From NCBI RefSeq assembly GCF_058153355.1, contig NZ_CM177019.1: DNA of 64,000 bases; one strand, 5' to 3'. The position numbers were made by a program, and so were the translations under genes. Positions 4,383 to 54,639 of the stretch are shown one piece after another; position 1 is the first letter of the stretch, and each line of letters starts with the position of its first letter. The notes under the pieces were generated by a model. The model did not search any database and had not been told where the DNA came from. It was given only the letters and a program-made list of their open reading frames with translations.

Positions 4383-4510
4383 ATGCCGGATGTGGCCTAC
4401 GGTTCGGCACAGACCTGTAGGCATGATAAGACGCGTCAGCGTCGCATCAGGCATTGTGCGCCAACTGCCGGATGCGGCGTGAACGCCTTATCCGGCCTAC
4501 GAAGGGCAGA
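4383..4510. repeat. BIME: two REP palindromic units in the yjjW/yjjV convergent intergenic region
   Basis: Contains GCCGGATGCGGCGTGAACGCCTTATCCGGCCTAC (4467..4500) and a GATAAGACGCGTCAGCGTCGCATCAGGC unit, both canonical E. coli REP sequences. Confidence 0.85.
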
Positions 4511-31225: not shown

Positions 31226-31483
31226 TCAATGATTACTTCTTTTGCTTTCTATTTTGCGGATTGCAACTTTATCTTGATTACATTGATTTAATGCTGATAA
31301 CAAATTCACATTCAAATCAAGACTTGCACCATACGTCAGTGGGTTGGGTATAAACGGTACAGGAGTATCAGAAGTCAAGCTGACTGGTAGTGGTGTCTTC
31401 GGAATGCTCACGTAAACTGTTCGCGTACTTCCGCAACCTGTCAGCAGCGGCAGCAGGTACAGGACGGGCAGCACAATCATCAT
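31226..31483 (-). CDS. o-spanin Rz1 (outer-membrane lipoprotein), embedded in the Rz gene in another frame
   Basis: MMIVLPVLYLLPLLTGC lipobox; Pro-rich mature part; lies within/overlapping 31368..31760. Confidence 0.65.
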   Translation of the reverse strand: MMIVLPVLYLLPLLTGCGSTRTVYVSIPKTPLPVSLTSDTPVPFIPNPLTYGASLDLNVNLLSALNQCNQDKVAIRKIESKRSNH

Positions 31484-31760
31484 CCGCAACAGCCACTTTA
31501 ATATCTTCCTGGGTTCTCTGTGACTCCAGTGCGATCTGCTGTTTTGCATGCTGGTTAGCCTCCAGAACTGTATTGACGATTTGCATTGATTGCAGGACGT
31601 TATTGGTAATGGCAGTTGCTGATTCAGCATTTTGTACAGCCTCATCAGCACGTTTCTTTTCGTACTGATATTTGCTGTAGTAGTAGTTGGCTGACCAGAT
31701 GAAAGAACCAATGGCAGTAACGAAAAAAGCAGCGATAATCAGCTTATAACTCAACTTCAT
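31368..31760 (-). CDS. i-spanin Rz
   Basis: 130 aa; N-terminal transmembrane segment plus coiled coil; follows the endolysin gene. Confidence 0.7.
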   Translation of the reverse strand: MKLSYKLIIAAFFVTAIGSFIWSANYYYSKYQYEKKRADEAVQNAESATAITNNVLQSMQIVNTVLEANQHAKQQIALESQRTQEDIKVAVADDDCAARPVPAAAADRLRKYANSLREHSEDTTTSQLDF

Positions 31761-32220
31761 TTACCACCCCACCAGCCTCTTTAAATCGGGCAATCAGGTC
31801 ACCGATTTTATGTTCATACTGACCGTAACCTGCGCCCGGCAGTGAAGCCCAGATATTGCTGCAACGATCGATAGCCTGACGGATATCACCGCGATCAATC
31901 ATCGGTAAAGCGCCACGCTCTTTAATCTGCTGCAATGCCACTGCGTCCTGGCTTTTGGGGGAGAAGTCTTTCAGACCAAGCTGTTTACGGTAAGCATCCC
32001 ACCATCGGGAAAGAATCTGGTAGCGTCCAGCAGCCGTTGATTTAAGTTTTGGGTTTAGCGTGACAAGTTTGCGAGGGTGGTCGGAGTAATCAGTGAAGAG
32101 TTCACCACCGACAATAACGTCATAACCGTGGTTACATGTCGGTTGCCGTCCATTATCCGTTCCTTCTGACCATGCCACCATATCGAGGAAAGCTTTACGC
32201 TGGGAATTTAGTACCTGCAT
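31744..32220 (-). CDS. endolysin (lambda R-type lytic transglycosylase)
   Basis: 158 aa; near-identical over long stretches to lambda R as remembered (NQRKAFLDM.AWSEGTDNGRQ...NHGYDVIVGGELFTDYSDHPRKLVTLNPKLKST). Confidence 0.9.
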   Translation of the reverse strand: MQVLNSQRKAFLDMVAWSEGTDNGRQPTCNHGYDVIVGGELFTDYSDHPRKLVTLNPKLKSTAAGRYQILSRWWDAYRKQLGLKDFSPKSQDAVALQQIKERGALPMIDRGDIRQAIDRCSNIWASLPGAGYGQYEHKIGDLIARFKEAGGVVNEVEL

Positions 32221-32223
32221 AAA

Positions 32224-32559
32224 TTACTCCTTAGAGCCACCAAACTTGTTACCGATTACTCTCATTGCAGCCCCACGAATTGCATCGACCCCAATCAGCC
32301 CCACCCCACCACCAATGGCAACAGAAAGCGATTTAGGCCATCCGACATACTCAAGCGCGGATGCAAAGGTCAGCGTCAGAGCGCCACAGAGCAAAATTTC
32401 GAGTGTTTTTCGTTTCCAGCCGCCACCACCACCAAAATAGGCAATACGCAAACCAGCCATAACAATCGACATAATCACTGCGCCCAGCGGCGTATCTCCA
32501 CGCCACCAGCTCTGGAACAACTCCAGCCAGTCCGGCCAGGTATTTGGGTTATGAGGCAT
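32224..32559 (-). CDS. putative holin
   Basis: 111 aa with 2-3 hydrophobic helices and a charged C-terminus, immediately upstream of the endolysin. Confidence 0.6.
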   Translation of the reverse strand: MPHNPNTWPDWLELFQSWWRGDTPLGAVIMSIVMAGLRIAYFGGGGGWKRKTLEILLCGALTLTFASALEYVGWPKSLSVAIGGGVGLIGVDAIRGAAMRVIGNKFGGSKE

Positions 32560-33689: not shown

Positions 33690-33838
33690 GGATCAGTAAG
33701 CGTAACTCTGGTAGGCTCACTCTGCTTTTGCGCTAAAGCAGTGGGCCGAGGTTCGCTTGTGACCAGTAAGCATGAGCGAATGGCTGGCAGGTGCTACCAA
33801 CACCCACCAGCCGCCCATTTTCACAAATTAAAAGCCCT

Positions 33839-34057
33839 TCATTGCTGAAGGCGTCTGTAACAGCCGAACTGGTAATCTGCCAGCCCCGCCATAACCAGCT
33901 GGGTCAGTATTAACTGACAGCGTTCGCGTGAAAGGTATGTGTTTTGTGCTATCTCCCCGACTGTTGCCGGTTCGACGCTTAATTCATTAAAAACAACTTT
34001 CGCCGTTTCTGTCATATCTAGCTGTTTTAGCATGTCTTTTTTCCTTCTGGTTAACAT
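33839..34057 (-). CDS. small hypothetical protein, possible winged-helix DNA-binding fold
   Basis: 72-aa ORF first downstream of the late promoter/terminator; SD present; no family recognised. Confidence 0.45.
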   Translation of the reverse strand: MLTRRKKDMLKQLDMTETAKVVFNELSVEPATVGEIAQNTYLSRERCQLILTQLVMAGLADYQFGCYRRLQQ

Positions 34058-34156
34058 GACATACCAATAACTCTTGTCTAAAAAGCCAGCAAGATAAAAA
34101 GTCAGTATTCACGACCACCAGCGTGTTTACCGTACTGCCAACATCAAGGCACAAAA

Positions 34157-34180
34157 AAACCCGCTCAGCGGCGGGTTCTT
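34157..34180 (-). terminator. intrinsic terminator (tR'-like) downstream of the late promoter
   Basis: Minus-strand CCCGCCGCTGAGCGGG hairpin followed by a T7 run. Confidence 0.65.
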
Positions 34181-34223
34181 AAATCTTATCAACGGTAGAC
34201 ATACAAAGCCCATCGTTGGGACA

Positions 34224-34252
34224 ATCTTATCCATATTTTTTGAAAAATGCAA
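34224..34252 (-). promoter_or_regulatory. late promoter (PR'-like): -35 TTGCAT, 17-bp spacer, -10 TAAGAT
   Basis: Sigma70-like elements on the minus strand immediately downstream of the Q-like gene and ~45-60 nt upstream of the terminator. Confidence 0.5.
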
Positions 34253-34283
34253 GAATTATGTCGTCATCTTCGGCGAAAATCAT

Positions 34284-35036
34284 TTATCTCGTCACTTTTC
34301 TTAATTGCGTCTCAGCATATGCTTCTTCCTGCCAGCACTTTGTCACCAGTTTATCAATGACATCTGCATATCCTTTGTACCACTGATAATCCGTCAAATC
34401 TGGTACCAGTTTCTGTACATGACACCGCGCCAGTGTCGTTGGTAAACGGCTAAACCGGTTTCCATTGCAACGTCCACAAATCTTATAAACAGGCCTGCCA
34501 TGAAGCCGGGTCCTTTTTTCATCCAGGACAATACCTTTACCCTTACACCCTCTGCACGCTGTGCTGACTTCTCCCTTACCATGGCAATGCTGACACAGTT
34601 CCTTTACCCACTCTTCCTTGATAACAGATTCCCCGCTTCTGGAGTGTTTCACCACTTCGCGCAATACATTATGAAATCCAGTACCAGCACAATGCTCACA
34701 GCAAGCCTTACTTGCCGCAGACCTGGAATAATCAGCAAAGGCAAAATTCACAAGGTAAGGAATGATCTGTAGCCGGGTTTCTTCACTCAATTTGTTCAAT
34801 GTCGGGTTATCCAGTGCCATCGCGTAATTGAGCAGACCTTCAATCGCAAACTGAGGATCCTGAATACCAAGTTTTGCCAGGAATAAGGCAAACCCAAGCG
34901 GTGCTTTCGACTGCACCATCCCCTGCGCAGCCATTACATCCGTAATTGTTAAACCACCAGAGCCTGTCGCCGGTGCGTCATCGCTCAATATTGGAGATTT
35001 TGGGGAGTAATATTTCGGTAAGGCTTCAAGGTTCAT
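34284..35036 (-). CDS. antitermination protein Q-like (Cys-rich zinc-binding)
   Basis: 250 aa with CEHCAGTG...CQHCHGKGE...CRGCKGKG...CGRCNG motifs; located just upstream of the late promoter/terminator pair. Confidence 0.65.
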   Translation of the reverse strand: MNLEALPKYYSPKSPILSDDAPATGSGGLTITDVMAAQGMVQSKAPLGFALFLAKLGIQDPQFAIEGLLNYAMALDNPTLNKLSEETRLQIIPYLVNFAFADYSRSAASKACCEHCAGTGFHNVLREVVKHSRSGESVIKEEWVKELCQHCHGKGEVSTACRGCKGKGIVLDEKRTRLHGRPVYKICGRCNGNRFSRLPTTLARCHVQKLVPDLTDYQWYKGYADVIDKLVTKCWQEEAYAETQLRKVTR

Positions 35037-37024: not shown

Positions 37025-37420
37025 TTACCGAGTTGCTAATTTGCAACTCGCTTTTTCGTACTTACTGATAGTGATCTCGACCTTCCCTTCCGGGATAACC
37101 GGTCCCCACTCCACCAGCATTCTTTTCACCTGACTGTCGTCTTCCCACACACCCGCGTGGGTCAGAGCGTCAAACAGCGCCTTGTTATAGTTGTCCAGAT
37201 CGCGGATCCGGTTATCCGGAGGAAACAACACGATCTCCACTGAAGCAGGTGCCGACGTTGGTTTCGGCAGACGACGTAACTGCTCAACTATTGCTGCGCA
37301 CGCCGCGCTCTGGAATTTGCGCCCCGCCGCGCTTATCAGGCTTTTACCAGCAAACGCCCCTTTGTTAGGGTGTCGCCAGTACGTATTCACGCTGGGCGGG
37401 AAAGGCAGGATCAGTTTCAT
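37025..37420 (-). CDS. Holliday junction resolvase RusA-like
   Basis: 131 aa; conserved RusA pattern (PPSVNTYWRH..., DLDNYNKALFDALTHAGVWEDDSQV). Confidence 0.8.
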   Translation of the reverse strand: MKLILPFPPSVNTYWRHPNKGAFAGKSLISAAGRKFQSAACAAIVEQLRRLPKPTSAPASVEIVLFPPDNRIRDLDNYNKALFDALTHAGVWEDDSQVKRMLVEWGPVIPEGKVEITISKYEKASCKLATR

Positions 37421-37743
37421 ACTTTCAGGCCTCTCTCATGTAACCAGTGGGTTGCACGCAGCCTTGCGTTTTCCTCACCGGCAAGCAGTGAGCGGATAAT
37501 CCCGACAGCCTCGCTGTCGTCGTCCTTCACCGCGGTATGAAGCGTTATCCCCCGGGCCACGCCACGCTTTATCGTGATGACGCCTTTTTTCTCCAGTGCG
37601 CGAAGATGCTCCACCGCTGCATTCACTGAACGGTATCCCAGCATGGTTGCCACCTCCTGATTGGTTGGCGGGAAGCCACGTTCTTTCTGGTAAGAAATCA
37701 GCATATCCAGCACCTGCTGCTGGCATTGAGTTAATGTCGTCAT
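37417..37743 (-). CDS. LexA N-terminal DNA-binding-domain homologue (no peptidase domain)
   Basis: 108 aa; LTQCQQQVLDMLISYQKERGFPPTNQEVATMLGYRSVNAAVEHLRALEKKGVITIKRGVARGITL aligns with the E. coli LexA N-domain at roughly half identity; there is no S24 peptidase region. Confidence 0.7.
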   Translation of the reverse strand: MTTLTQCQQQVLDMLISYQKERGFPPTNQEVATMLGYRSVNAAVEHLRALEKKGVITIKRGVARGITLHTAVKDDDSEAVGIIRSLLAGEENARLRATHWLHERGLKV

Positions 37744-38393
37744 GCCGCCATCTCCCTGACCAGTTTTTCCGCCTGCTGGCGAACCTGCGCCAGAAAGGCC
37801 TCACCACATGCCTCAAGTTCATCGCGCCCGATGTAGCTGATTGCCGGTCCCTTCCAGGTCTTGTCGAAAACAACAATAGCACCAGCGAAGAAAGCGCCTG
37901 TCGGCACCTGCTTCTCGTCCTTCGGTATAAACCAGGCAGGCAGTTCAAAACCAATACGCCCGCGAATAAAAGCAATATGATCTGCATCTTCCGGCCACCA
38001 CACTTCGCTGGTGGCAGCTTTGATCAGGAAAACATAGCGCCCGCCTTTATCACGCATGGCACTGGCATGTTTCATGATGTAACGCATGCCGGTGATGTAT
38101 TGCCCCTCATGCTGACTGGCGCGGCTGTATGGGGGATTACCAAAGGCAGCACCTTTAAGCTCCGCAAGACGTTCTGACCAGTCATGCGCCAGCGCGTTGT
38201 CTTCCGCCGTGTAATACGCGGCACATTTGGCGTTATCACCGTCAGTGAACAGATCCAGAACAAACGGACCAAACAAGGTGTTAATTCCCCAGAAAATGTT
38301 GTCCGGCGTGCGCCACTGATCGCCCACTTCCTTCAGTTCATGGGCTGGTTTGTTCCGCAGTTCTACCAGCGCCTGGCAATATTTATTACTCAT
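37740..38393 (-). CDS. phage N6-adenine DNA methyltransferase (Dam-like)
   Basis: 217 aa with FGNPPYS catalytic motif; typical lambdoid nin-region methylase. Confidence 0.8.
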   Translation of the reverse strand: MSNKYCQALVELRNKPAHELKEVGDQWRTPDNIFWGINTLFGPFVLDLFTDGDNAKCAAYYTAEDNALAHDWSERLAELKGAAFGNPPYSRASQHEGQYITGMRYIMKHASAMRDKGGRYVFLIKAATSEVWWPEDADHIAFIRGRIGFELPAWFIPKDEKQVPTGAFFAGAIVVFDKTWKGPAISYIGRDELEACGEAFLAQVRQQAEKLVREMAA

Positions 38394-42425: not shown

Positions 42426-42863
42426 AACTATTTCCTTCTTGGCTATATGAAAACACCAAGATACCACCGAGCCTGAAGTGGTGAAAAGACAGGCACATAA
42501 CAGCTAAGTATTTTCAACCAGAGAGAATCCTTAGCGTTGTGGTGAATGCGGCTCAGCGCACGCGGGTTAAGGTTGAGGTTGACAGTCGACCTTCTGTGGA
42601 TACCCACCCGCCTGGTGTGCAACCTTCGCCAGGCACCGGGAGGCACCCGGCACCACAACTTTATGCTGTGTGTAGTCCTCGCGGTACCAGTTTGTACACT
42701 TGCTTCCGGCTGGTACCGCTCTTTTTACAAAACAGAGAAGGGCATCACCGGACGACGGGCTCATAACCCAATCCATCCGGGCGGCTGCCACCGCAGGTGT
42801 TCTTCTCTGTTTTGTGGAGAAACCAACCGACCTTGCAGGGTCGATATGATGAGGAGCAGCAAA

Positions 42864-44780: not shown

Positions 44781-45133
44781 ATGTTTTCGAAATGGAAGGG
44801 TTTCTTCGCGGGAAATGTGTACCGCGAGATCTGAAAGTGAACGAAACAAATGCTGAGTACCTGGTACGTAAATTCGACGCGCTTGAAGCTAAATGTGCGG
44901 CACTGGAAAACAAAATAATACCAGTGTCAGCTGAACTGCCACCAGCAAATGAAAGTGTTCTGTTATTTGATGCTAATGGAGAAGGCTGGCTGATTGGCTG
45001 GCGTTCTCTCTGGTACACCTGGGGACAAAAAGAAACCGGAGAATGGCAGTGGACATTTCAGGTCGGGGACCTTGAAAACGTCAATATCACTCACTGGGCA
45101 GTAATGCCAAAAGCACCGGAGGCTGGAGCATAA
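44771..45133 (+). CDS. hypothetical protein (YfdS-like)
   Basis: 120 aa; overlaps the upstream stop. Confidence 0.5.
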   Translation: MRMNVFEMEGFLRGKCVPRDLKVNETNAEYLVRKFDALEAKCAALENKIIPVSAELPPANESVLLFDANGEGWLIGWRSLWYTWGQKETGEWQWTFQVGDLENVNITHWAVMPKAPEAGA

Positions 45134-45912
45134 TGACCACATTTACCAATAAAGAACTGATTAAAGAAATCAAAGAACGAATCAGCAGCCTAGAGGTTCG
45201 AGACGATATTGAGCGCCGTGCTTATGAAATTGCTCTGGCATCGCTAGAAGAGGAGCCGGTGGCATGGCTGCATTCAGAAAATGGCTTAGGTATTCCGGCA
45301 ATAACGAGGTGTAAAAACATTGCTGACAGTTGGTTATCAAAGGGCTGGTATGTTCAGCCGCTATATATAGCCAAGCCAGTGCCGGTAGTGCCAGATGCTC
45401 GTCCGTCTTTAAATAATGGCATAGTCGGTTTTGATGAAGGCTGGAACGCCTGCCGCGCCGCCATGCTTCATGGTGCCGAACCTGTAAACCAAACTTACAA
45501 GTCACCACACACGCAGTTTGAACAAGTTGCTGACCTCTACGAAATGCAATTTGATGACGGTCGCACTTGTGCCTTTCACACTGATGCGCAAAAGGCTGCG
45601 CAATGGCTTCAGGTGTGCGACGGAAACAGGGTTCAGGAATACGTTAAGCTGGAACGGCTGCAGAACGCGCTGTCTGGCAACTCTCCGGTAAGTCCGGGTG
45701 GTTGGATAAGCTGTAGTGAGCGAATGCCGAATGATAAACAGTATGTTTGGTGTTGGGGGAAGTCTTACGGCTGGACTGAGTGCGATACCTTCGAAGGGTA
45801 TTATGATTGGTCGAGAAACAAATGGTGGGCAGTTACTGACAATGAGGAAGAACAGGCATCGAAAGTAACCCACTGGATGCCACTACCGGAGCCGCCGCAG
45901 GAGGTGAAGTAA
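45133..45912 (+). CDS. hypothetical protein with Trp-rich C-terminal domain (DUF551-like)
   Basis: 259 aa; C-terminus WISCSERMPNDKQYVWCWGKSYGWTECDTFEGYYDWSRNKWWAVTD. Confidence 0.5.
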   Translation: MTTFTNKELIKEIKERISSLEVRDDIERRAYEIALASLEEEPVAWLHSENGLGIPAITRCKNIADSWLSKGWYVQPLYIAKPVPVVPDARPSLNNGIVGFDEGWNACRAAMLHGAEPVNQTYKSPHTQFEQVADLYEMQFDDGRTCAFHTDAQKAAQWLQVCDGNRVQEYVKLERLQNALSGNSPVSPGGWISCSERMPNDKQYVWCWGKSYGWTECDTFEGYYDWSRNKWWAVTDNEEEQASKVTHWMPLPEPPQEVK

Positions 45913-51727: not shown

Positions 51728-54090
51728 CCCTGTCGGGTAGCAGCGATTCATTACTGTCTCGCCGCCCCCTAAGAACGGTACGTGCGAGTTTCCCCGCATA
51801 CCGCTCAAGCCTTTATAAGCCTCCACCTTGTGGGAGACCAGCGTCATTACTATGTAGTTGTCGATGGCAGTTGGGATGGAGTAGGACTAAATTGCTCACA
51901 TCATCGCTACCGCCAAGAGATTTCTTGAGCAAATGATGAACATTCCATCCTGTATCGCGATTAATCGGTTGCTCACATAAAGGGCAGCGCGATCCTTGCC
52001 TTTTCCATATAGCGAGAATCCTTTTCTGCCCCTGTTGGGATTTCTTCCATGAGTAGTCCAGCCTTCTTTCGAAGTATGTTTCCCACTCGGGATCATATGG
52101 ATTTGCCGTTCCCTTTATTTTTATATAGCGATTAATATGGATGTCGCTGGCCCGGGACAGAACATATTTCCTACCCTCCGGATCGACTCCATAAAATCGA
52201 CCATGACACATTTTTATTGTCGTGTGGTACTTTCGGAAGATCCATCTCCGGCCTTTGCCGGGATGTCTCCTTCTGCACCACTGCCAGATTTTGCGCCAGA
52301 TTTGGTTGTCGACATAGTTAAATGTCTCTGCCGATGCTACATGTTGGTGATAGTTTGCCCACCCGGTGATGATTGGATTAAGCAGATTTATTAGCACCCA
52401 TGCAGGAACCGTTCGGTTACCTTCAATAGTCTCTCTGATCTTGCTAAGAAATTGTTTAACGTTTTTCTTGGCTGGTCTGATTATGAGTTTTCTACCGAAG
52501 CGTCGGACGTGCTGCCCAAGGAAATCAAATCCGTCAGTAATGTGAGTGATGACCGTTTTCTCTTCGGATAACGTCAGCCCTCTTTCTGCAAGAAATGATT
52601 TCACCAACGGAAGAACATTCTCCTCCAGAAGTTCTTTCGACTTTCCGGAAATGATGAAATCATCAGCATACCGGACGAAGTGAACCTGATGTTTCCTGAA
52701 TGTTTTTGAGCGTTTCGGACCAAAGCGATTTTGCAGCAGTCTTTCCAGTCCATCCAGGGCCATGTTTGCCAGAACTGGAGATATGATTCCTCCCTGGGGT
52801 GTACCCGAGAGAGTTTTGCTGAATATGCTTTTTTCGATGATCCCGGCTTTCAACCAATTACGGAGTATTTGCTTGTCCATAGGAATATTTTCAAGCAGCC
52901 ACTCGTGGCTAATGTGTTCAAAGCATCCTTTAATATCGCCTTCCAGAACCCATTTCGAGGCGTTCCGGGAACTATACATATTACATACCTGTTGAATGGC
53001 GTCAGCCGTACATCGCGCTGGTCTGAAACCATAACTGTTGTGATCTGCATTAGTTTCCGATACAGGCTCCAATCCCAGCAGATGCAGGGCCTGCATTGCC
53101 CTGTCAAGCATGACGGGGATTCCTAATGGTCTTTTCTTGCCATTAGATTTGGGTATAAAAACTCTTTTTAGCGGTAGGGGCTTGTACCCTTTTCGCCTGA
53201 GTTTGAATATCGCTTCCCATTTTGATTCTGGAGTACTCCAGATTTGACCATCAACTCCGGGGGTTTTACGCCCGCTATTTTCCGTAACTCGTTTCACCGC
53301 CAGTGCTCTGGCGCTGAATGAGCGAACCAGCAATCGTTGCAATCTACCGACTGTACGCCATTGCTGGTTACATGCCGCCTTTGCGATTCTTGTCTGTATG
53401 GTTTTAACGTGTTGATGGCATTTCTTCCAGTTAATGGAATGCCAACCTTTTCCGTTGATGACCGCAGTTACATTGTTAGATGTAATTTTCATACATGTCA
53501 TCCAAAGAAACCTTCGCAGATGTTTCGCAATTAAAGACCAGATGGAAGTCAGCACGGTTTCCCGTTAAGGCAAATATTGAACCTCTATCCGCACGATTAC
53601 AGTCCGGCTTTCGCTTTTTCCATCCTCCTTTACCCGCATTCTCATCAGTTTGCCTTACGGTGCCCCTGCCACTAGGGCGAGAATTCGGGCTTACCAAGTT
53701 CCGACCAACATACAAAGAACGGGTTAGGTTCTGTCTATCCGCCGGGGGAGTTATTGTCCATGTATTCCCACTACGAACAGGAATAGCCTTACCCCTTACC
53801 TTTTGGTGCAAGCCTATCAGCATCTTTGGCTCGTTCTCTGTTACGACGTTTAACGACAGTTCACTATGTTAACCATACCGCCCAGCCTAGCGCTCTCGCC
53901 GCATGATGCTTGTAGCGATCAGGTTTTCTCACGATTAACTGAAGCAATATTTGCTAAGCTACATTGTCCCAAGGGCTTCAGACAGAGCCGTTACCAGCTT
54001 TGCCTGCCTCAGTAGGCTACAACTAATGGAATAGTTGGTTTTATATAAATAATTTATCAAAACAATATGTTGGACGACTTCTTGTCGCAC
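51728..54090 (-). mobile_element. group II intron (~2.36 kb), boundaries approximate at the 3' end
   Basis: 5' end GTGCGACAAG (reverse complement of 54081..54090); RT/maturase/HNH ORF; canonical domain V GAGCGGTATGCGGGGAAACTCGCACGTACCGTTC (reverse complement of 51773..51806) 7 nt after the ORF stop. Confidence 0.75.
51813..53492 (-). CDS. group II intron reverse transcriptase/maturase with C-terminal HNH endonuclease domain
   Basis: ORF 51813..53555; RT motifs including YADDFII; maturase (X) region; C-terminal CPLCEQ...HH...NCHRQLH; likely start at MKITSNNVT. Confidence 0.85.
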   Translation of the reverse strand: MKITSNNVTAVINGKGWHSINWKKCHQHVKTIQTRIAKAACNQQWRTVGRLQRLLVRSFSARALAVKRVTENSGRKTPGVDGQIWSTPESKWEAIFKLRRKGYKPLPLKRVFIPKSNGKKRPLGIPVMLDRAMQALHLLGLEPVSETNADHNSYGFRPARCTADAIQQVCNMYSSRNASKWVLEGDIKGCFEHISHEWLLENIPMDKQILRNWLKAGIIEKSIFSKTLSGTPQGGIISPVLANMALDGLERLLQNRFGPKRSKTFRKHQVHFVRYADDFIISGKSKELLEENVLPLVKSFLAERGLTLSEEKTVITHITDGFDFLGQHVRRFGRKLIIRPAKKNVKQFLSKIRETIEGNRTVPAWVLINLLNPIITGWANYHQHVASAETFNYVDNQIWRKIWQWCRRRHPGKGRRWIFRKYHTTIKMCHGRFYGVDPEGRKYVLSRASDIHINRYIKIKGTANPYDPEWETYFERRLDYSWKKSQQGQKRILAIWKRQGSRCPLCEQPINRDTGWNVHHLLKKSLGGSDDVSNLVLLHPNCHRQLHSNDAGLPQGGGL

Positions 54091-54093
54091 TCG

Positions 54094-54181
54094 TAGGCCA
54101 GATAAGACGCGCCCGCGTCGCATCTGGCATCTGCACCCAAATACCGTGTCGGATGCGGCATGAACGCCTTATCCGACCTAT
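54094..54181. repeat. BIME: two REP units abutting the intron 5' end
   Basis: TAGGCCAGATAAGACGCGCCCGCGTCGCATCTGGCA and GTCGGATGCGGCATGAACGCCTTATCCGACCTAT. Confidence 0.7.
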
Positions 54182-54317: not shown

Positions 54318-54404
54318 GCGAAGGTGGCGGAATTGGTAGACGCGCTAGCTTCAGGTGTTAGTGTCCTTACGGACGTGGGGGTTCAAGTCCCCCCCCTCGC
54401 ACCA
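54318..54404 (+). tRNA. leuQ: tRNA-Leu (anticodon CAG), copy 1
   Basis: 87-nt sequence GCGAAGGTGGCGGAATTGGTAGACGCGCTAGCTTCAGGTGTTAGTGTCCTTACGGACGTGGGGGTTCAAGTCCCCCCCCTCGCACCA, matching E. coli tRNA-Leu1 with encoded CCA. Confidence 0.95.
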
Positions 54405-54432
54405 AAAACCACGTTGATATTGCTCGCACTGG

Positions 54433-54519
54433 GCGAAGGTGGCGGAATTGGTAGACGCGCTAGCTTCAGGTGTTAGTGTTCTTACGGACGTGGGGGTTCA
54501 AGTCCCCCCCCTCGCACCA
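54433..54519 (+). tRNA. leuP: tRNA-Leu (CAG), copy 2 (one C to T difference in the variable arm)
   Basis: Same 87-nt sequence except GTGTTCTTACGG instead of GTGTCCTTACGG. Confidence 0.95.
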
Positions 54520-54552
54520 AACGAGGCGATATCAAAAAAGTAAGATGACTGT

Positions 54553-54639
54553 GCGAAGGTGGCGGAATTGGTAGACGCGCTAGCTTCAGGTGTTAGTGTC
54601 CTTACGGACGTGGGGGTTCAAGTCCCCCCCCTCGCACCA
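54553..54639 (+). tRNA. leuV: tRNA-Leu (CAG), copy 3
   Basis: Identical to copy 1. Confidence 0.95.

Follow-up and report, generated by a model that had tools for sequence, protein, structure and literature searches.

The stretch of DNA analysed here (the window) comprises 64,000 nucleotides (nt) of contig NZ_CM177019.1 from NCBI RefSeq assembly GCF_058153355.1. On its minus strand, positions 33,690 to 34,283 separate a gene for a Q-type antiterminator from a gene for a DNA methyltransferase (the methylase), and homology marks the locus as the probable switch for the late genes of a lambdoid prophage similar to SfV. The following features are given in the direction of transcription.

34284..35036, minus strand: Q antiterminator gene, 250 amino acids (aa)
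34224..34252, minus strand: predicted late promoter of the PR' type
34209..34217, minus strand: predicted start (34217) and putative -10-like sigma70 pause element, AACGAT followed by GGG
34151..34217, minus strand: predicted short 6S-like leader RNA of ~65 nt, with a 5' hairpin CAACG...CGUUG and a terminator hairpin
34151..34177, minus strand: intrinsic terminator tR', AACCCGC-CGCUGA-GCGGGUU followed by a U run
33839..34033, minus strand: orf47-like gene, 64 aa, predicted winged-helix protein of the family phrog_331
33828..33851, minus strand: weak terminator-like hairpin CCUUCAGCAAUGAAGG (33851-33836) followed by CUUUUAAUUU, over the orf47 stop codon (from the scan list; fold -8.1 kcal/mol)
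33714..33826, minus strand: conserved structured leader RNA, ~113 nt, helices P1 to P5
32637..33689, minus strand: beta-class N6-adenine DNA methyltransferase of the M.EcoGII family, 350 aa
32604..32629, minus strand: terminator-like hairpin GGCCACGUUGCUUGGCC (32629-32613) followed by a U run, between the methylase and holin genes (from the scan list; annotated as a terminator in phages SfV and Ayreon)
31368..32559, minus strand: lysis cassette with S 32559-32224, R 32220-31744 and Rz 31760-31368 (Pfam Phage_holin_3_1; SfV annotation)

The product of the first gene matched the Pfam family Antiterm (PF03589) with E = 1.1e-52, chain Q of PDB entry 7UBM with E = 1e-37 and PHROG 127, and it is 35% identical to lambda Q over the full length; by homology, this Q-like gene is a true member of the lambda Q family. 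Relative to lambda Q it contains a 48-aa insertion (residues ~135-182; 34491-34634, minus strand) with two extra CxxCxGxG zinc motifs, for which a sub-threshold match to Pfam DnaJ_CXXCXGXG was obtained. The Q of the E. coli Qin type, annotated as ydfT, has the same length as the Q of the window.

An earlier note, made from the letters of the DNA, had placed a sigma70-like promoter TTGCAT-17-TAAGAT on the minus strand just downstream of the Q-like gene, and the two hexamers were found exactly where it had put them. The -35 hexamer TTGCAT (34252-34247) lies 32 nt past the Q stop codon (34284), the 17-nt spacer (34246-34230) is the presumed Q-binding element, the -10 hexamer TAAGAT occupies 34229-34224, and the predicted +1, the first A of AACGAT, is position 34217, six bases after the -10. 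The comparison of the lambda sequence TTGACT-17-TAAATT-TGACTC-AACGATGGG with that of the window, TTGCAT-17-TAAGAT-TGTCCC-AACGATGGG, showed 32 of 44 positions to be identical from -35 to +9 without a gap. PR' of P22 was also aligned gap-free, and the hexamers and the 17-bp spacer are in register with both phages. The element AACGATGGG at +1 to +9 is the same in the window as in lambda and is invariant, or nearly so, among the relatives; in the spacer, 11 of 17 positions agree with lambda, and phages with this Q show hardly any variation there. When the positions common to lambda and the window were made into a pattern, it gave a single match in the 64-kb window, against 0.01 expected. These similarities suggest that TTGCAT-17-TAAGAT is an active promoter.

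The first A of AACGAT corresponds to lambda coordinate 44587, the mapped PR' start. In lambda, AACGAT is a -10-like element that causes a sigma70-dependent pause, at which Q is loaded. By analogy, RNA polymerase would be expected to pause at the AACGAT of the window as well. A second exact TAAGAT occurs at 34183-34188 (minus strand), that is at +30 to +35 of the leader RNA and just before the terminator; it belongs to a direct repeat GATAAGATT, whose other copy lies at the -10, and its conservation is limited to close relatives. Either chance or a further sigma-dependent pause site could account for it.

A strong intrinsic terminator had also been noticed shortly past the promoter, and this terminator was recovered as a hairpin followed by U7. 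The stem AACCCGC/GCGGGTT (34177-34171 and 34164-34158, minus strand; T7 run 34159-34153) can be extended from 7 to 10 bp with a folding energy of -13.9 kcal/mol, and the same site is annotated as a rho-independent terminator in the SfV and Ayreon records. Among the relatives the stem is kept and the loop is variable (CGCUGA, CACUGA, UGAUGA, UUCG and others). A transcript that starts at 34217 and stops where the T run ends would be ~65 nt long and is predicted to fold at -21.6 kcal/mol, and an 81-nt stretch at the PR' leader gave z = -3.1 relative to shuffled sequences.

Promoter, pause element and terminator thus follow the layout of lambda PR'-qut-tR', the source of 6S RNA, and of P22 Plate-qut-tlate, as had been proposed for lambda PR'/tR'; in both phages a Q gene of the same Pfam family lies directly upstream and AACGATGGG is identical at +1. 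The lambda arrangement was determined experimentally. In the P22 record Plate, qut, +1 and tlate are in the same geometry, with a leader of ~58 nt versus ~65 nt here, whereas the lambda leader has 194 nt. Lambda also differs in its hexamers (TTGACT/TAAATT versus TTGCAT/TAAGAT) and in its Q, which is devoid of the zinc-motif insertion. In the predicted PR' RNA, nucleotides 1-27 (34191-34217, minus strand) form the hairpin CAACG...CGUUG, which includes the pause element; a 5' hairpin is present at the same place in lambda (AACGA...UCGUU) and in P22. A search of Rfam assigned sub-threshold scores to 34151-34229 (minus strand), namely 28.1 bits for Trp_leader (gathering score 41) and a match to Leu_leader. 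The identity of the PR' leader with a Trp or Leu leader (E<=1) was rejected, and the scores were taken as a chance resemblance of one hairpin followed by a terminator to another.

Such a short RNA could have a function of its own. PR' is expected to be constitutive, so the ~65-nt RNA would be abundant in the lysogen, and its 5' hairpin, terminator hairpin and U tail give it a shape favourable for Hfq; either this RNA or a processed piece of the leader found further downstream might then act in trans as a regulatory RNA. A precedent is StxS (PMC7547250), which likewise is a short constitutive late-promoter RNA that ends at tR' in lysogens, although it comes from PR' of Stx phages, with a different Q/PR' type, as a 258-nt transcript cut by RNase E to 74 nt. 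Against a trans-acting role stands the variability, among close relatives, of the region between the two hairpins. We consider such a role quite unlikely; it would in any case be compatible with the late-switch explanation and not exclusive of it.

The 2.5 kb from Q to the methylase are 96.7% identical to Shigella phage SfV (U82619 / NC_003444), which has the same genes in the same order with few substitutions. In its record Q, orf47, orf48 and S are annotated, along with two terminators, a rho-independent one at this place and another after orf48; in the original record orf47 and orf48 are 'unknown', and the promoter and leader RNA are unannotated. At least 80% of the stretch was found in 416 of 5,426 complete E. 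coli genomes, with identities of up to 98.2%. Promoter, pause element and terminator stem are retained in nine phages with this type of Q; the similarity of these phages stops right past the T run, where the cargo varies: the methylase cassette, cspB/cspF, other open reading frames (ORFs), or the holin gene directly. In cdtI and PhiR40_1 the Q is a different one, of 120 aa, yet the same sequence is found from the terminator hairpin onward. Since similarity breaks at tR' both when Q is shared and when the cargo is shared, tR' is a mosaic joint on both sides. Recombination joints at tR' are represented by loci L002, L004, L005, L011 and L012 of our collection. In Ayreon, mEp460 and the Stx2c phages tR' occurs twice, and the two copies bracket an extra ORF of 141 aa.

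The 350-aa protein with a DPPY motif, which the earlier note had taken for a methyltransferase lying where lambdoid phages carry cargo, was identified as one by homology: residues 29-340 matched Pfam N6_N4_Mtase with E = 1.4e-41. Its architecture is that of the beta class (N-terminal DPPY, central target recognition domain, C-terminal FxGxG), with DPPY at residues 35-38 and FFMGSGST at 309-316. It is 81% identical over 349 aa to M.EcoGII, the sequence of which was taken from the supplement of PMC11551740 in a copy with small machine-reading errors, and shares 89% of residues with the first 237 aa of Anc291. Anc291 is a reconstructed ancestor that is active on DNA and RNA and largely non-site-specific (PMC11551740). 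M.EcoGII methylates adenine in any context; its lysogen does not express it, and expression does harm (PMC5778455). In a 2025 review it is placed alongside Mu Mom under the words 'silent in lysogens and toxic' (PMC12707154). M.EcoGII and M.EcoGI, from E. coli O104:H4 prophages, share with the methylase of the window the prophage location and the order of the beta-class motifs, and M.EcoGII is of nearly the same length (349 versus 350 aa); the 19% of residues that differ between M.EcoGII and the window enzyme lie in good part in the central region. Taken together, the identities suggest that the methylase of the window is probably non-specific.

Its homologues are encoded on the late strand between Q or the late promoter and the lysis or stx genes in phages and hosts that include E. 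coli, Citrobacter, Hafnia, Providencia, Serratia, Yersinia (PY54), Klebsiella, N15 and Aeromonas. In the Stx2e phage P27, the Stx2a phage WGPS2 and Stx2c phages the order is Q, small ORF, methylase, transfer RNA (tRNA) genes where present, and stx, so that the same cassette lies in the cargo slot between Q and the toxin. A rough survey recognised a Q upstream on the same strand in 136 of the 239 loci with enough flank, most of the remaining ones having only 1.5 kb of it, and at least seven sequence types of Q were met. Past the methylase of the window the late operon continues with the holin, endolysin and Rz genes of the lysis cassette. The Q family, the homology of PR' and tR', and the gene order on the late strand make the Q-dependent late expression put forward in the earlier note a well-supported expectation.

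The alternative that the methylase is an orphan sequence-specific enzyme, transcribed from its own promoter in the lysogen and engaged in epigenetic regulation of the host or in superinfection exclusion, has to be weighed here. Prophage methylases of that kind exist, and the promoter scan was insensitive, having missed PR'. This alternative is nevertheless regarded as very improbable: the gene lies between terminators within the late operon in every locus examined, the enzyme is 81-89% identical to proteins shown to be non-specific, and its close homologues gave no methylation signal in lysogens (PMC5778455; PMC6602927).

Most variants of the methylase gene are devoid of a well-spaced Shine-Dalgarno sequence at the start. 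In most enteric variants a GATC (Dam site; 33691-33694, minus strand, in the window) stands directly 5' of the methylase ATG (CUGAUCYAUG), and in variants of the Serratia type the ATG overlaps it (CAUGAUC).

The gene between tR' and the methylase, orf47, had been described as encoding a small possible DNA-binding protein, a reasonable description in that a winged helix is predicted, with DNA or RNA as the possible target. The best start is the ATG at 34033, preceded by AGGA; with an upstream ATG, that at 34057, the protein would have 72 aa, and the 64-aa form is the more likely one. It falls into PHROG 331 (E = 2.5e-34), whose function is unknown, together with gp51 of N15, and ORF59 of PY54 aligns with the same family; the homologues are 44-97% identical. 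Pfam gave weak winged-helix hints. The AlphaFold model, computed from a 10-sequence alignment, has a predicted local distance difference test (pLDDT) of 90.9 and consists of three helices and a beta hairpin (H-H-H-beta-hairpin). The Foldseek matches to winged helices were marginal (best E = 2.7e-3) and included O-methyltransferases, MarR and IclR regulators and the mRNA-binding part of SelB. Two cysteines are present, without a zinc finger. Lambda orf-64 was considered as a homologue and rejected, the two sequences appearing unrelated by eye.

The untranslated spacer between orf47 and the methylase (~145 nt, 33838-33690) is almost invariant in six phages, whose small ORFs share only ~50% identity, and it folds at -66.5 kcal/mol (z = -3.5). 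The element is recognisable in phages of Citrobacter, Hafnia, Providencia and Serratia. Its helices are P1 (33826-33822 with 33761-33757), P2 (33818-33813 with 33777-33772), P3 (33812-33799 with 33795-33782) and P4 (33747-33741 with 33720-33714), inside which P5 is located. P1 to P3 form domain 1 and P4/P5 domain 2. The many G-U pairs show that the structure is that of the sense strand.

A covariance model, R1, was built from eight sequences. In every annotated methylase locus it gave one match, ending at the methylase ATG, and it matched 137 of 158 further methylase loci from IMG/VR. Outside the seed it found PY54 (63.8 bits), N15 (39.9), PhiR46_1 (38) and the Aeromonas phage phiARM81ld (33.7), as well as lambda itself (42.5 bits, E ~3e-8), where the match at 44996-45159 lies between tR' and S. 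With the filters off, P22 and g341c were matched too, in both cases ahead of the holin gene. Of the whole element, lambda and P22 have retained domain 1 only. Copies of the lambda type occur in 185 phage records, such as those of HK97, Sf6, P22, ES18 and BTP1, and among the matches listed none of 40 carries an RNA-feature annotation of it. A short variant of the leader, of ~122 nt and without domain 2, was scored at 25-28 bits in five IMG/VR loci (L169, L171, L172, L173 and L176). In Rfam the region gave no match anywhere at the gathering threshold, and at E<=1 only the Trp/Leu leaders on the tR' hairpin region.

For the evaluation of the pairing, 45 representatives with a mutual difference above 7% were used. 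Standard pairs occupied 91.9% of the cells of the alignment, as against 31-41% when the partners were slid by 1-3 columns; 21 of the 30 pairs showed compensatory changes, in 175 cells, and none of 500 shuffles attained the observed value of even one of the five measures. Having been fitted to the model, the alignment leans to the structure, and the slid controls argue that the signal is real. An alignment made with MAFFT only misaligned the variable P3, recovered 15 pairs and was not used for the counts. The arms of P3 are rewritten between lineages, as in GGCUGGUGGGUG/CACCUGCCAGCC, GACUGUAAAAGUG/CACCUUUACAGUC, GCUACAGUAUG/CAUACUGUAGC and GGCAGGAGGU/ACCUCCUGCC.

The element stands ahead of the first late gene in N15, PY54, the Aeromonas phage, lambda, P22 and HK97, as in many lambdoid and N15-like phages, and its surroundings are variable. 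In N15, PY54, the Aeromonas phage and others it starts a few bases past a strong terminator, which in N15, PY54 and other loci takes the place that the orf47-end hairpin has in the window. The tail of tR', GGGUUUUUUUGUGCCUUGA, resembles the junction GGUUUUUUUGUGCCUGAAAAUGGGCG, which suggests that orf47 was inserted between tR' and the element. Downstream lies the methylase in enteric phages, S in lambda, and in the Aeromonas phage a Com-like ORF overlapping the methylase. N15 resembles the window in possessing a phrog_331 gene (51), the leader RNA, a homologous methylase gene (52), lysis genes, and an annotated late promoter with an immediate terminator; it differs in that the small gene stands before promoter and terminator and the Q gene is far off in immB.

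Two simple assignments of the leader were rejected. It is not specific for the methylase, since lambda, P22 and g341c have domain 1 before the holin gene and no methylase. Nor is it part of the Q module, as R1 gave no match in five phages that have the Q-PR'-tR' of the window and other cargo. The shape of the RNA suggests a different role. P2 (6 bp) is stacked on P3 (13-14 bp), so that ~20 bp are formed, interrupted on the 3' side by a conserved bulge of 4 nt. A near-continuous helix of ~20 bp, often with an asymmetric internal loop, is the typical shape of an RNase III substrate. Our leading guess is that the leader may serve as a processing or stabilising site of the RNase III type for the late mRNA.

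It is also conceivable that orf47 protein and leader form a control module for a toxic methylase, similar to com-mom of Mu, in which the protein, as the first product of the Q-dependent transcript, would bind the leader RNA or DNA and license translation of the methylase or read-through into its gene as a second lock behind Q. Such a module would fit the phrog_331-like ORF that in 218 of 253 loci precedes the methylase on its strand at a distance of 50-300 nt, the phrog_331 gene just before late promoter and terminator in N15 and PY54, the poorly spaced Shine-Dalgarno sequence mentioned above, and the resemblance of the predicted orf47 fold to the RNA-binding winged helix of SelB, among others. 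In the Aeromonas phage phiARM81ld (locus L101, 2206-2577) an ORF similar to Com, the translational regulator of Mu, lies between leader and methylase and overlaps the methylase start, which speaks for the same idea, and Com-regulated non-specific adenine methylases are found in Mu-like prophages (PMC3299994). As in Mu, a toxic protective DNA-modification gene would be expressed late, with a small regulator gene and a structured RNA before it. The differences are a winged helix in place of the Cys4 zinc finger of Com (orf47 has no zinc finger), the want of a conserved stem at the start codon, and Q antitermination in place of the Mu C activator. Two helices that could hide the methylase start (the linker with the region before the AUG, and the 3' strand of P4 with AAGG) had 46-51% of their cells paired, no better than the slid controls, and were discarded as unsupported; the Com-like model is therefore left without its key structural feature. 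The conserved structure stops ~25 nt before the methylase AUG, and lambda and P22 have domain 1 in the absence of methylase and phrog_331 gene. On balance a control module of this type is unlikely. Outside the window, phrog_331 ORFs are placed at 2006-2233 in locus L099 and at 1992-2225 in locus L100.

It is tempting to extend this idea and to regard the RNA at 33826-33714 as a late-operon leader, widespread and so far uncatalogued, in temperate phages of Enterobacterales and Aeromonas, represented by domain 1 even in lambda, P22, HK97 and Sf6, which in the methylase phages would form with the phrog_331 protein a second, post-Q checkpoint on the toxic methylase, a winged-helix/RNA counterpart of Mu Com-mom. 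Taken as a whole, this proposal seems doubtful.

The late-switch explanation, which combines an SfV-like lambdoid prophage, a Q-driven methylase and a conserved leader, is considered highly probable as a whole. In the lysogen, sigma70 RNA polymerase would initiate at PR' (+1 ~34217) and pause early, as region 2 of sigma binds again, this time to the -10-like AACGAT of the non-template strand; in the absence of Q, transcription would end at tR' with release of the ~65-nt RNA. After induction, Q would bind the promoter spacer, load on the paused polymerase and confer terminator resistance, and the modified polymerase would read through three hairpins, namely tR', the one over the orf47 stop codon and the terminator that follows the methylase, to continue into S-R-Rz and the head and tail genes. 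The first late products would be the 64-aa phrog_331 winged-helix protein and the adenine methyltransferase of the M.EcoGII type, and the transcript between their genes would fold into the five-helix leader. The methylase might modify the progeny DNA just before packaging and thereby protect it from restriction in the next host, and its expression only in the late phase would spare the lysogen the toxicity of the enzyme.

Several points weigh against this explanation. The promoter hexamers are weak relative to TTGACA/TATAAT (3/6 and 4/6), and the generic promoter and terminator scan listed neither PR' nor tR'. For these reasons the promoter call rests on homology and not on consensus; tR' was probably missed because its stem extends into the T run. 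As both elements escaped the scan, it was set aside as evidence for as well as against them. The same scan listed no promoter-like site between tR' and the methylase on the minus strand, which, as it overlooked PR' and tR', is weak evidence for the lack of an internal promoter. The spacer, the presumed Q-binding element, differs from that of lambda at 6 of 17 positions in a comparison made by eye only. The non-specificity of the methylase is extrapolated from M.EcoGII, a protein 19% different. The leader seems unneeded for the action of Q, because phages with the same module and other cargo are without it, and the RNase III assignment is a guess drawn from helix geometry, with a 1988 lambda paper as the presumed precedent.

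Some further features of the window may be mentioned. The early region of the same prophage contains a methyltransferase of the Dam family (PF05869) at 37740-38393 (minus strand), and the adjoining gene at 37417-37743 (minus strand) encodes a 108-aa protein that consists of the LexA DNA-binding domain alone. Rfam identified a group II intron (D1-D4 and catalytic core) adjoining three tandem tRNA-Leu(CAG) genes, at 51732-54038 (minus strand) and 54318-54639 (plus strand), as well as naRNA4/REP-like matches at 4420-4497 and 54096-54178 and an STnc100 match at 42506-42728.

The promoter, terminator and methylase at this locus are ordinary in that they make up a classical late switch of the lambda/P22 kind with a known methylase family in a known cargo slot, within an SfV-like prophage frequent in E. 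coli. What the analysis adds is the identity of the methylase as a member of the M.EcoGII clade, its linkage to phrog_331 and the apparently uncatalogued late-leader RNA, which shows strong covariation and occurs in the best-studied phages, yet is absent from Rfam. Q-dependent late expression would provide a concrete mechanism, antitermination, for the reported silence of M.EcoGII and of genes of its type in lysogens. Since the methylase belongs to a non-specific clade, the assignment of its motif, suggested in the earlier note, may find no motif; in the methylome of virion DNA, dense motif-free N6-methyladenine is rather to be expected. Finally, because the cassette lies between Q and stx in Stx2a, Stx2c and Stx2e phages, changes in read-through or in RNA processing would bear on the expression of the toxin.

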